From assembly GCA_050298055.1 (NCBI GenBank), contig JBNKTL010000019.1, forward strand, positions 23,649 to 87,648: a stretch of DNA of 64,000 bases. The letters run 5' to 3'. Below the pieces are notes generated by a model. It worked only from the letters and a program-made list of their open reading frames with translations. It was not told the origin of the DNA and made no database searches. Within the stretch, counting starts at the first letter, position 1; each line of letters begins with the position of its first letter. The position numbers and the translations under genes are program-made. Shown in pieces: positions 13,044 through 17,391 of the stretch. This DNA is from Spirochaetota bacterium (lineage in GTDB: Bacteria > Spirochaetota > UBA4802 > UBA5550).

Positions 13044-13868
13044 TTATTTCTGGTCGTATTTTTTCAGCCATTCTTCAATCAGCCCTTCTCTTATTAATTC
13101 TTCAATGAACACATCGACCTGGTTTTTTAAAATTGTGTCCCCAAAGGGAAGGCCCGCGCAGATCTTCTCAACAAGGCTCCCCCCTGTGAGAAGCCTGTAG
13201 GGTGTTCTGTATGACGCGCTGGTGCTGTAAAGATACTGCAGGTAAAGTGAATCGTGAACAAAACCGTGAGCTTTCCCCGATTTCAGCATATTGAGCCCTT
13301 CCTCAGTGGTCTTTACAATGACTTTCGGCATATTGGGCATCTTATTATTGAGGAGGTATTCATAGGTGCTTCCCTTCTTTACGGCAAACCGGAACCTGCT
13401 TATTCTCTTCAGGTCCCAGATTGTCTTGATAGGGCTCTCCTCAAATTCATCTCCAAACCTGGTCTGCGGCAATACTCCTTTAACAACAAGCACTCCGGGG
13501 GAAAGGGTAATATAGGGTTTGGAAAACCAGATATATCTTGCCCGTTGAATATTTCGAGAAAACCCCGCAATGACAATATCCACTTTTCCTTTTCTGAGAG
13601 CGGGAAGAAACTCACCAACTGTCATGGGAACCTTAACAACCCTGACCCCCAGAAATTCACCAAGTTTCTTTGCCATTTCAATTTCCACACCCTTCTTTCC
13701 CGAATGAAAATTCAGTGGCGGATAGTGTGTTGAAATCCCTATCCTGATGACTTTTTTATCCATGATGCTTTTATAAACCTGGCCCGGGTTATAGCTGTCA
13801 GCATTCAGGGAAATACTTATTAGCAGAACGGTTACCGGTAAAAATATTCTCCGCTTTAAAATACGCAT
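13044..13868 (-). CDS. Amino-acid ABC transporter substrate-binding protein (family 3)
   Basis: IRIG-x-x-x-x-YPP, G-x-EIEMA, GKVDIVIAG, FSKPY, VKKGST motifs; start at ATG 13868. Confidence 0.8.
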   Translation of the reverse strand: MRILKRRIFLPVTVLLISISLNADSYNPGQVYKSIMDKKVIRIGISTHYPPLNFHSGKKGVEIEMAKKLGEFLGVRVVKVPMTVGEFLPALRKGKVDIVIAGFSRNIQRARYIWFSKPYITLSPGVLVVKGVLPQTRFGDEFEESPIKTIWDLKRISRFRFAVKKGSTYEYLLNNKMPNMPKVIVKTTEEGLNMLKSGKAHGFVHDSLYLQYLYSTSASYRTPYRLLTGGSLVEKICAGLPFGDTILKNQVDVFIEELIREGLIEEWLKKYDQK

Positions 13869-13981
13869 TTCGACCTCTGTTGAACCTGTATTATGACGTT
13901 GATCGTAACATCGATTCAACATCAAAAAAGTACATTAATCAAGGAAAAAAATGAAATATTATAATAGATGCTACTTAGCTA

Positions 13982-14195
13982 TGTCATAGCGAGCGCAGCG
14001 TGGCTCATCTCGATACGATCCTGCTCACCGGGCAGCCAGGAAACGGCGTGTTGATATGCAGGATCACTCGATGAGCATCAGTTGTGTTCCCCGAGTGATT
14101 TGCCGCTTTATTGATACAGTGCTTTGTGTTTTAAAATACGGCAAATTGTATCGAGGGGAACGGATCATTGCGTCGTTTCGCTTCTCATGATAACA
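13982..14195 (+). other. Structured palindromic element with a four-way-junction core; candidate ncRNA or RPE-like repeat
   Basis: Stems 14009-14018/14146-14155, 14019-14024/14058-14063, 14064-14070/14092-14098 and 14099-14105/14139-14145 abut with no unpaired junction bases; G-U pairs favour the + strand. Confidence 0.55.
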
Positions 14196-14203
14196 GAGTC
14201 TTC

Positions 14204-14235
14204 AACTCGGAATTTGGAACACGAAACCCGGAACT
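14204..14235. repeat. Heptamer tandem array
   Basis: AACTCGG-AATTTGG-AACACGA-AACCCGG-AACT, same unit type as 11679-11710. Confidence 0.7.
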
Positions 14236-17200
14236 CTACTCTATCCTCAACCGGGAAATTTCCACCTTGTAGAGATTATGAGTGTTATTAAGCATCTTCT
14301 TGACGTTCTGGATCAATTCCCTGTCTGTTGATCTCTTCTGGACGTACATTTCAATCTCCTTGAGTTGTTTGCCCAGCTTCAACCCGATATCTTCAAGGTC
14401 ACCGGCGATTGAAATCGAAGAAGTCGCCGTTGTCTTAAGTCTCAGTTTCTTAAGCTCCTGTTCAATCTGAGAATCCTGTTCTTTCTTCTCCTCTTCCTCT
14501 TTAATCTTTTCTTCAATCAGACTATTGGCAATTTCATGGAAATTAATGGGGTTGATAACCTCAAAGTGTTCATATCCTGAAGAGTAACTGGTATAAAGCA
14601 TTTCAGAAACAGGATTTACCGCAAAAGCCTTCTCTACGATGTCAAGGGTATTCCGGTCCAGAATTATCCTGTTATCAAGTATATCACTGTTTGAAGCATC
14701 CATGCTGAAAAAGGGAAGATGAATGATCTCATCATTGAGCAGATCCACTTCACCGGTGATAATCTGCATTTTTGTTTTAATGGATTTATTTACGATCCTT
14801 GACCGGGTAAATGTATTAATATTTTCGTTTATGAGAAGTGACGTTTCTATGGCCGGAATTGTATCGACAAAAATTGCCACAATACCCCGGCTGCTCATTC
14901 TTGATATGATGCCTTTGTTATCAAGTATATCCTGTACCATAAGAGTTTTTATTTTTAAATTCAGGCTGATGAGTTCGGATATGTCAATCTCATCTATATC
15001 CTCCTCATAGCTGATATTGATATTCAGTAATGTGACTTTTCTCTTTTTAAGATTACTGACCTCAATAATTTCCTGTTCGGTTTTTGGTTCAATATCTCCC
15101 AGATCAGGCGCTTCATACTTTCTGAAAATATTAACGATAAAGCTGTCGACCTCCTTCAGATCTTCCTCGGGAAGCATTTCGAGAACTGAGATTATATCGT
15201 CTGTGATACCATACTCCTCTTTCAGCAGTGATACAAGGAAGAATGAAAATTCAACAGACCTCAGGTCCCCGAGAATCGTCAGGATTTCTCTCTGAATGCT
15301 CTTATTCTTGATAATAAGCATATCCCTGATTGACTTGAGAGCTTCCTTGTTCCCCAGTTTTACGAGCAGGAGACATGAATAGACCCTTATCCTGATACCC
15401 GGTTCCTTGAGGTATTCGGAAAGGTGTTTCATCACCGTTCTCTTGTCAAAGTCGTGGCTTATTGTTGCAATTGAACCGATAGCCCGTACAATATGGTCCT
15501 TTGTATCATTGTCAGTAATTGAATAGAAGAGCTCATGAAGGTATTCAATATCTGCCTCCAGGCCGCATTTTCCCACTCCAAGGATACCCAGTCTCAGGAT
15601 ATTCTGGTTCTTTGTTATGCTGATTATCTTTTTTAAAACCTGGTTGGCTGTGGCATTTCCCTCAATATCCCTCTCAATGAGGATATTGATAGCCAGTTCC
15701 ACAATCTCTGATTCTGCAGTAATATTATTATGGATGAATTCAAGGAGGACATTCAGCGACCGTTGTTCCGTGAAAAGGGAAATCAGCTGAAGGGATTTTA
15801 GTTTCTCACTGTCATTTCCTGTTGTAAGCAGGACCTCTATTTCCCCGAGCATATAAGAGTAGTTTAATACGGAAAGTGTATAGATGGCTTTATCTGTAAT
15901 TTCCGGATCGGGATATTTTTTGAGATAGTTATAGATATTAACCAGTGTGGAAGACGCGTCATTGATATAAAGCCTGCTTATTATTTCACACAGGCGTATA
16001 ATCCTGTTCCTGAGATATCTCTTCTCAAAATTAAGGTCCTCTATCCTGGTTGCCGAATTCTCCCGTGATTTATTATCGGTGTCGAAGAATATCTCAATAA
16101 GGTGGTTGAGGACATTTTCGTCATCCCGATCCAGGTGCTTAACATAGTCTCCTAACTCCCTTACAATATTCCTTATTGCTGACGAGTCATCGTGATTTAA
16201 AAAAGTCAGGATCTTCCTCTTGTACTCGGGATTGAGTTTTTCAAGGATAAAAACCCTTATCTTCTGAAAGCTCTCGGGTAAACTCTTTTCAGCTACATCC
16301 GTTATCATGAACTCCTTTCTAAATGTTTCGAAGTAAGTTTCAAGTGTAACAACAATGTAGCTGTAAAGCTTGTCTTTAAGGATATTGTACTGTCTTGAGA
16401 TCCTCTCCTGCGTGAAAAACCTTGTAAAAATAGTTATGATCAACTCATTCTCAACCGGGAATTCGGTTGTAAGAGCAATGAGATTTCTGAACAGCTTATC
16501 CGGGTCCCTGATCCTGTTGATGTTGATGAAAAGAGCGTAAAGTGTCAATATGACAAGCTTCCTGTCACCGGATGTAAGGGCTTTCATAGTATAGATCAGG
16601 TATTCCCTGTGGTTGCAGGAGATCATGGCACAGATAAAAGCGACCTTTGTCTCAACCGAGTATAAATCAAACCTGGATGAGAGCTTGCCAAGGAGCACCC
16701 TGATATCAAGGAGTATTTTATCTTCATCCTCCTCCGAATAGGTAAACAGGGCCGATTCATCAGTACTGTTTTTTATCGCTTCATCTGTGAGTTTTTTATT
16801 CAGGTCATAGATTGACCTGTAAACAGCGTAACAGAGCCTGTCATCTCCTTCCTTAAGAATATTCTCAAATGTGGATGTGGCTTTGAATTTTGAAAGTGAA
16901 AGGATACCCAGTGCCTTTATCTCCATATCAATCTCTTCACCGGAAACAAGGGAAAGCAGGTAATTCAGCACATCCTCTGACTCTCCTGAAGCCGATTTCA
17001 ATGCCTCAAAGGCCGTGGTTAAAACAGGAAGCTCTTCCGGATCATCTTTCTTTGAATCAATATAGTCAATAATATCCTGTACAATTTCCTCATTCCCGTT
17101 GTCCCTGATGTGAGAAAAAATCAGGATCTTTTCTTCACGTGAAAGATCACTCTTTAAAAGGGGTATAAGGGCCTTCATGACCTCAGGTCTCCTGAACTTT

Positions 17201-17391
17201 ACCAGAACAGATATTGCACTGGACCTGATATAAGGTCCCTTATCCAGTTCCTTTAAGAGGATATCCAACCCGGTATCAGATTTGAGAATACCGAGGATCT
17301 TATGAAATGACAGTCTCTCATAGGGTACCAGTTTAAAACTTCTGCTGATTTCAAGCTTTATTGACTGGAGGAAACTTTTTTCTTTTACCAA
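14236..17391 (-). CDS. Large HEAT-repeat protein with degenerate class III nucleotide-cyclase-like domain
   Basis: Many HEAT-like helical repeats; C-terminal region follows the cyclase pattern but lacks the catalytic aspartates; terminal coiled coil. Confidence 0.6.
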   Translation of the reverse strand: MVKEKSFLQSIKLEISRSFKLVPYERLSFHKILGILKSDTGLDILLKELDKGPYIRSSAISVLVKFRRPEVMKALIPLLKSDLSREEKILIFSHIRDNGNEEIVQDIIDYIDSKKDDPEELPVLTTAFEALKSASGESEDVLNYLLSLVSGEEIDMEIKALGILSLSKFKATSTFENILKEGDDRLCYAVYRSIYDLNKKLTDEAIKNSTDESALFTYSEEDEDKILLDIRVLLGKLSSRFDLYSVETKVAFICAMISCNHREYLIYTMKALTSGDRKLVILTLYALFININRIRDPDKLFRNLIALTTEFPVENELIITIFTRFFTQERISRQYNILKDKLYSYIVVTLETYFETFRKEFMITDVAEKSLPESFQKIRVFILEKLNPEYKRKILTFLNHDDSSAIRNIVRELGDYVKHLDRDDENVLNHLIEIFFDTDNKSRENSATRIEDLNFEKRYLRNRIIRLCEIISRLYINDASSTLVNIYNYLKKYPDPEITDKAIYTLSVLNYSYMLGEIEVLLTTGNDSEKLKSLQLISLFTEQRSLNVLLEFIHNNITAESEIVELAINILIERDIEGNATANQVLKKIISITKNQNILRLGILGVGKCGLEADIEYLHELFYSITDNDTKDHIVRAIGSIATISHDFDKRTVMKHLSEYLKEPGIRIRVYSCLLLVKLGNKEALKSIRDMLIIKNKSIQREILTILGDLRSVEFSFFLVSLLKEEYGITDDIISVLEMLPEEDLKEVDSFIVNIFRKYEAPDLGDIEPKTEQEIIEVSNLKKRKVTLLNINISYEEDIDEIDISELISLNLKIKTLMVQDILDNKGIISRMSSRGIVAIFVDTIPAIETSLLINENINTFTRSRIVNKSIKTKMQIITGEVDLLNDEIIHLPFFSMDASNSDILDNRIILDRNTLDIVEKAFAVNPVSEMLYTSYSSGYEHFEVINPINFHEIANSLIEEKIKEEEEKKEQDSQIEQELKKLRLKTTATSSISIAGDLEDIGLKLGKQLKEIEMYVQKRSTDRELIQNVKKMLNNTHNLYKVEISRLRIE

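Follow-up and report, generated by a model that had tools for sequence, protein, structure and literature searches.

A dispersed intergenic repeat with inverted hairpin ends and a predicted four-way-junction core in a Spirochaetota genome

Bacterial MITEs and the ERIC, Correia/NEMIS, BOX and RUP repeats are modular intergenic sequences of 100-250 bp with terminal inverted repeats and strong predicted folds. The palindrome-associated elements derived from IS200/IS605 (PATEs) have hairpin-bearing ends, produce no target duplication and follow a one-strand logic. REPINs, each a single long hairpin made of two inverted REP units and their spacer, are mobilised by RAYT tyrosine transposases, as laid out in the parts of Bertels and Rainey 2011 (PMC3116915) drawn on here. 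The REP super-family of Di Nocera, De Gregorio and Rocco 2013 (PMC3733652) bears a terminal CGTC tag, or TGTC in many repeats, opens its stem with A and T, has a short unpaired tail and occurs in several phyla. The sections of that paper used here describe four families with continuous stems of 8-9 bp, loops of 4-5 nt, spacers of 20-100 bp and a three-base tail that is mostly CCA; inverted dimers of unlike partners are frequent, their conserved spacers may hold stem-loops, and these sections name no dedicated transposase for the CGTC/TGTC-tagged REPs.

Here we describe a non-coding, multi-copy element of ~215 bp, one copy of which lies in a 64,000-nucleotide stretch (hereafter the window) of contig JBNKTL010000019.1 from a Spirochaetota bacterium (assembly GCA_050298055.1). 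Its arms share with the CGTC/TGTC-tagged REPs, as portrayed in those sections of PMC3733652, the terminal tag, the AT start of the stem and the inverted-dimer build. They differ from families 1-4 in having a 5-bp outer stem, an internal loop and a GNA mini-hairpin, and the element as a whole differs from the dimers described there in that its spacer is 150 nt long, is predicted to form a four-way junction and also stands alone in other genera. Judged by these sequence features, the arms are REP-like, relatives of the CGTC super-family and not members of its four families. Like the REPINs in the consulted parts of PMC3116915, the element is an inverted palindromic pair with a spacer, is non-coding and forms a population of intergenic copies; unlike them it has a TGTC rather than a GTAG tag, its copies number tens rather than hundreds, and the RAYT-like genes of its host are flanked by other repeats rather than by its own motif. 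Its size, inverted ends, intergenic place, deletion and duplication variants and predicted fold recall MITEs and the ERIC, Correia/NEMIS, BOX and RUP repeats, from which it is set apart by a closed four-way junction with cross-genus covariation and by the finding of neither a parent insertion sequence nor a target duplication, the latter being absent from all 20 elements inspected. With PATEs it has in common the hairpin ends, the lack of target duplication, a one-strand logic and a possible short motif at the left end (left flanks ending in RTTRY in 8 of 20, by eye), which could be a target preference or a part of the element; in contrast to PATEs its ends are true inverted repeats, and no Y1 transposase with these ends was found.

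The window element (positions 13982-14198) is one copy of a multi-copy repeat and not a lone RNA gene. A BLAST search with the element against its own genome (4.7 Mb, 199 contigs, 44.4% G+C) gave 45 matches, an nhmmer profile recovered 11 full-length copies on 9 contigs together with ~12 partial or rearranged ones (profile positions 2-222 corresponding to C19:37630-37846 for the window copy), and R1, a covariance model built from the 11 cores, gave 24 matches. Copies in the host are roughly 70-88% identical, and when they are aligned with 50 nt of flank the similarity starts at (C)TGTCAT and stops at ATGACAGAG(T). With gene calls that were crude (longest ORFs of at least 90 aa), all loci are intergenic except one ambiguous case on C14. 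An earlier note on the window had offered two readings of positions 13982-14195, an unannotated structured RNA antisense to its neighbours or the single-stranded form of a non-autonomous mobile element, and the second of these fits a dispersed intergenic multi-copy repeat with inverted hairpin ends.

The window copy has the architecture that had been proposed for it: P1 and the three hairpins lie at the positions given in Table 1 and tile the interior exactly, with palindromic arms at 13982-14000 and 14171-14195. On the + strand of 13982-14195 the junction is the minimum free energy (MFE) fold predicted by RNAfold, at -79.5 kcal/mol (z -3.35), and 0 of 200 shuffles, whose energies were -63.5 +/- 4.8, folded as well; the - strand reached -66.8 (z -3.19, 1 of 200 shuffles as good). 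With DNA parameters the corresponding values were -37.2 for the + strand (z -2.64, 2 of 200 shuffles) and -33.0 for the - strand (z -2.04, 4 of 200). At least five G-U pairs had been claimed for the + strand, and the MFE fold of the 156-nt core holds 9 among 55 pairs on that strand against 5 among 52 on the other. Both flanking genes are indeed on the - strand, an ORF at 13044-13925 encoding a family-3 solute-binding protein (SBP_bac_3) and one at 14236-17391 encoding a HEAT-repeat protein, and the element itself is overlapped only by spurious ORFs of 44 and 55 aa. A TATAAT is present at 13960-13965 as the earlier note had it, but it is flank and not element, because the similarity between copies starts only at (C)TGTCAT, and the left flanks of the copies are unalignable. 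The 3' box of H1 is degraded to GTTGATAT in the window copy.

Table 1. Coordinates of the window element and of related loci (window positions unless a contig or locus is named)
Feature	Position	Strand	Remarks
Whole repeat unit	13981..14198	.	Bounds from the alignment of 11 copies with flanks
Left arm, L type: TGTCAT-AGC-GAG-[GC GCA GC]-GTG-GCT(C)AT, TGTC-tagged hairpin unit	13982..14008	+	Opens 11 of 11 full copies
P1, 5' strand CTCGATACGA	14009..14018	+	Partner 14146-14155; 97% of cells paired in 11 copies
H1 hairpin, base TCCTGC/GCAGGA, variable interior	14019..14063	+	Local version of the module YGAGT-[stem-loop]-RTATCGARAT found across the order
H2 hairpin, outer TCACTCG/CGAGTGA, inner GAGCAT/GTGTTC with G-U pairs	14064..14098	+	Fold and 11-copy alignment
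H3 hairpin TTTGCCG/CGGCAAA	14099..14145	+	98.9% of cells paired in 11 copies
P1, 3' strand TTGTATCGAG	14146..14155	+	Pairs with 14009-14018
Right arm, R type, same hairpin unit inverted	14156..14198	+	Reverse complement CTCTGTTATCATGAGAAGCGAAACGACGCAATGATC; conserved end ...ATGACAGAG(T)
Y1_Tnp genes of the host genome	C45:23809, C13:35481, C26:23258, C22:84359, C5:71226, C30:28408, C37:46974
150-151-bp MITE-like family, example loci	L186:1501 (- strand), L199, L172, L180

Both ends of the element are inverted copies of one hairpin unit, CTGTCAT...ATGACAG, which consists of a TGTC tag, an AT-led outer stem, a GNA-looped inner mini-hairpin and a short tail. The outer stem has 5 bp (AT and three covarying bases) and is followed by a large internal loop and the mini-hairpin; the reverse complement of the right arm, for example, dissects as CTGTCAT-CAT-GAGGA-ACGAAGT-GACGTA-ATG-ATC. 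In units such as TGTC-AT-AGC...GCT-AT and TGTC-AT-TGC...GCA-AT, from the host and from other genomes, the triplet after TGTCAT always pairs with the triplet before ATC, and six such triplet pairs occur (TGC/GCA, CGC/GCG, CAT/ATG, AGC/GCT, TCT/AGA and CGT/ACG). The inner mini-hairpin likewise shows two-sided changes (GC..GC, AC..GT, GT..AC) or gives way to a longer hairpin. Tails run C(T/C) and then varying bases, as in ATCTGT, ATCC or ATCTC, compared with the three-base, mostly CCA tail of the four described families. The same ends, including the same 25 nt at the start, close ~10 shorter elements of 93-154 bp with differing interiors, and the host genome holds ~35 elements with TGTC-tagged hairpin ends in all. 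The resemblance of the arms to GTCATTGCGAG-type palindromic repeats, which the earlier note had remarked on, is real, and the unit also stands in other spirochaetes and in other phyla. Of 400 other spirochaete genomes, 7 hold it by a looser pattern (reversed control 0). The right-end pattern had 11 loci: 4 in one Chloroflexota MAG, others in MAGs of Dehalococcoidia, Sebaldella and Methylotenera, an arm-like match in a Bacteroidales MAG, and 3 (in two Clostridia MAGs and a Caulobacterales MAG) that match little beyond the pattern itself.

The repeat leaves its mark on the assemblies. Contigs of four DNA runs break inside it, where copies pile up, and in a second run of the same study the contig pieces of the locus reach 14017 and restart at 14108. 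A joint from 14026 to 14141 in the run contigs looks like the deletion-derivative copy on C14. Neither an empty site nor an insertion polymorphism was seen among these runs, whose contigs simply break in the repeat. At C17:41353 a left arm is fused directly to an inverted right arm beside a truncated core copy, an arrangement that suggests rearrangement between copies. The host is represented only by a fragmented MAG of 199 contigs, which might raise the idea of an assembly artefact, or of a palindrome arisen by chance; this idea is already refuted and carries next to no probability, given the recovery of the locus in second-run contigs, the spread of 11 full copies over 9 contigs, the failure of all 200 shuffles to fold as well and the homologues in other genomes.

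Within the host genome the copies tell of conservation and not of covariation. Cores are 75-94% identical in pairs (mean 86%); across the 11 copies the per-column identity is 0.96 in core stems versus 0.82 in unpaired columns, and 0.89 versus 0.82 when all paired columns are taken (p 0.025). The proposed structure pairs in 94.5% of cells and three G-U pairs are conserved on the + strand, yet covariation among these 11 copies is nil (score 0.095 versus 0.097 in shuffles; RNAalifold covariation term -0.16 for the own-genome copies).

Other genera supply the covariation. BLAST with the element found nothing in 40 relatives from other genera, and we surveyed the order (122 genomes, 121 of them others; the class-level set is the same 122) with R1 under strict filters and with a sequence pattern. 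Under strict filters R1 matched 4 of the 121 other genomes at 27-34 bits, and a laxer rerun on G016, G035, G014 and G005 reached a best score of 45 bits. The cores in these four genomes have no TGTCAT arms and sit beside unrelated genes. They keep the P1 boxes CATCTCGATAC and GTATCGAG, with the TCGATAC box conserved across genera; they also keep YGAGT and RTATCGARAT on either side of the H1 tip, and CACTCG and CCGAGTG in the outer part of H2, whose inner stem covaries. The H1 tip, inner H2 and the whole of H3 differ in sequence in other genera and are still paired, and MFE folding returns the same closed junction for the copies of G016, G005 and G014. In a cross-genus alignment of 12 rows, which was fitted to the structure of the model and leans towards pairing and G-U, 33 of 45 pairs had changed on both sides; without one reverse-strand row, compensatory changes remain at 31 of 45 pairs (69 cells), compared with 15.5 +/- 2.4 pairs and 21.3 +/- 3.7 cells after shuffling; in 0 of 1000 shuffles were the observed values equalled. 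Cut down to a single row for each genome (5 rows), the alignment retains 22 pairs with two-sided changes. Homologues of the core thus do carry compensatory changes, and the fold is conserved with them in at least five genera.

The compensatory changes, together with a one-sided wobble in the same alignment (31 G-T versus 10 A-C cells), argue for a structure formed by a single strand. The fold of the interior is kept by compensatory changes and the H1 module recurs in a shell with different ends, and therefore it is the folded single strand that is selected. With moderate confidence we read the element as a REP-dimer-like or MITE-like non-autonomous mobile repeat whose single-strand fold is under selection. 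By analogy with REP/REPIN and IS200/IS605-type systems, it would spread as DNA through a trans-acting enzyme that recognises the folded single-stranded ends; the need of each copy to fold in order to be propagated would preserve the structure, and neighbouring transcripts would be affected, if at all, only as a side effect.

RNA would account for the wobble bias no less than single-stranded DNA would, and a functional RNA, be it a multi-copy small RNA or a cis-acting module, formed by the + strand of the core and passively carried by repeat shells, would equally explain the compensatory changes in at least five genera. The + strand is the stabler in 17 of 21 copies (2 ties, 2 reverse), the G005 copy (L096:1501-1652) folds with a z of -9.78, the core exists without TGTCAT ends and the H1 module occurs elsewhere in a different shell, all of which would suit such an RNA. 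We nevertheless consider it unlikely. The antisense RNA gene proposed in the earlier note is not supported by the ~23 host loci, which lie in either orientation and have neither a promoter nor a terminator common to the copies; at the 13 loci between same-direction genes there is no orientation bias (7 same, 6 opposite), nor is there a strand bias relative to replication by local GC skew (12:10). Rfam families gave no match at gathering score for the whole window, at E up to 10 for the element or at E up to 1 for the foreign copies. Foreign copies, too, occur as tandem, overlapping inverted or half units, as repeats commonly do and RNA genes seldom do. Most hairpin tips are GNA-type triloops, and GNRA tips are absent: of the 29 perfect hairpins in 12 foreign copies, 18 end in triloops, C-GNA-G triloops number 8 on the sense strand versus 2 on the other, and GNRA occurs in 0 of 3 tetraloops. 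GNA triloops closed by C-G are a mark of unusually stable DNA mini-hairpins. The lack of a common promoter or terminator, the random orientation, the tandem, half and inverted arrangements and the GNA triloops together argue for DNA over RNA.

The element could also act as double-stranded DNA, as an array of host-protein sites in the manner of BIMEs or as a supplier of promoter parts, through the boxes TCGATAC/GTATCGAG. TATCGAG does occur three times per element, with extra tandem copies in the C36 copy and in foreign flanks. In support of isolated boxes as binding sites no enrichment was seen outside elements, where CTCGATAC occurs 133 times against 136 expected, and we set this candidate aside. 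The window copy contributes to a promoter-like site that matches at 11 of 12 positions (13987-13958, - strand), composed of the element end ATGACA, an 18-nt spacer and the TATAAT of the flank, and facing the solute-binding protein gene, which starts at 13925. As a property of the family, such a hybrid promoter was rejected: a -10-like hexamer stands at the right spacing at 9 of 73 ends, compared with 4-12 at other offsets. Neighbouring genes at 21 loci are in the same direction at 13, divergent at 8 and convergent at none, which would suit a regulatory site, but convergent spacers make up 12% of intergenic length and their avoidance (0 of 21) is not significant (p about 0.07-0.11). A role as duplex DNA would moreover leave the compensatory changes and the wobble bias unexplained, and we regard it as very improbable.

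For the mobile repeat that we favour, we searched for the enzyme. In the host's own genome the distance between two ends never exceeds 250 bp, as it would in an autonomous copy, the assembly being so fragmented that absence is unproven. An all-versus-all comparison of the 4255 ORFs of at least 150 aa in the same genome found no multi-copy transposase family. Among side results of the comparison, two six-copy families of small ORFs (about 150-170 aa, e.g. C14:9594-10049 and C15:78275-78742) have an N-terminus that by eye we take to resemble a ribbon-helix-helix antitoxin, and a two-copy ORF (C45:18902-20197 and C4:134746-136041) presumably encodes a group II intron reverse transcriptase, again judged by eye. 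The host has 7 RAYT-sized genes for Y1-like transposases (Table 1). As candidate partners these were rejected, with the motif within 1.5 kb of 0 of the 7 loci; GCTCTGA(C/G)C-type strings lie upstream of or near 5 of the 7, and the genes on C13 and C37 have other short repeats on their flanks. Elsewhere the outcome was the same, a full unit being present at 0 of 9 Y1_Tnp loci in 4 other motif-bearing genomes; a loose pattern had four matches near those 9 loci, none of which continues as a unit. Genome G339 has the motif and no Y1_Tnp gene. In G005, a small GIY-YIG nuclease domain stands directly downstream of the clean four-way-junction copy at L096:1501-1652, a single case. A GIY-YIG nuclease was also discarded as a partner, the one small GIY-YIG gene of the host having neither core nor arms nearby.

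The H1 module of the core occurs across the order. A pattern for it (TCGATAC..GAGT..RTATCGAR) matched 24 of the 121 other genomes of the order, compared with 1 match in all for the reversed control, and had, for example, 16 matches in G016, 18 in G357 and 11 in G318. Folded copies in G016, G318, G385 and G029 are 150-151-bp elements that carry the module between inverted ends like GGGGCTGTCCCAAAAG (Table 1), and similar module copies occur in G357, G285, G321 and G253. The GGGGCTGTCCCAAAAG-type end pattern has ~40 matches each in G016 and G318, mostly in pairs ~133 nt apart; in G357 it does no better than the reversed control. No long version of the 150-151-bp family was found in those assemblies, and a search of the host genome for its shell found none. 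Taken as loci, 34 distinct pattern matches include 20 with at least 4 anchored pairs between the boxes, and among these 20 there are at least 9 distinct stem sequences; the remaining 14 seem irregular or due to chance. Two metagenome loci have the 5' half only (P1 box, H1 and the 5' box of H2).

The core is a local elaboration of a hairpin module common to several small repeat families across the order, and what is new beyond a routine repeat family is the four-way-junction spacer and a covarying hairpin module that occurs order-wide in at least two shells. One may go further and suppose that the core, above all its TCGATAC ... YGAGT-[stem-loop]-RTATCGARAT module, belongs to a new class of functional single-stranded nucleic acids and travels in shells with TGTCAT arms or GGGGCTGTCC inverted repeats. 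It could, for example, serve the putative mobilising enzyme as a cofactor or as a recognition element, in the form of RNA or of single-stranded DNA. We hold this proposal to be distinctly doubtful.

On a practical level, the region calls for annotation as a repeat element rather than a new RNA gene, and so do ~23 host loci and the related elements that about one in five genomes of the order contain. Common to distant phyla, the TGTC-tagged hairpin unit has no known enzyme, and the ~35 elements of the host offer a compact set in which to hunt for one. Whether the folded form is a transposition intermediate or an RNA matters more generally, as the answer would show how REP-like elements without a known transposase persist.

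Searches of wider collections returned little that resembles the element. Plasmid and phage collections gave no match, apart from two weak phage matches to the arms (E 0.2 and 0.8) to which we attach no weight, and 39 pattern matches in viral contigs, 0 of which were confirmed by the covariance model, are read as chance. In metagenome contigs the genome-specific pattern found nothing and the generic pattern found 4 loci, namely two repeats of the G016 locus and two half units, while a literature search by sequence strings met only unrelated primers. Directly after the window copy, at 14199-14235, lies a separate dispersed repeat of 37 bp (CTTCAACTCGGAAT...CCCGGAACTC), for which BLAST gave some dozen short matches at other places in the genome (query 240-276) and at both ends of which the run contigs break, leaving loose ends at 14199 and 14235. 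Strings resembling this 37-bp repeat, CTTYAAC.. and ..CCGGAAC, flank several other copies of the element.
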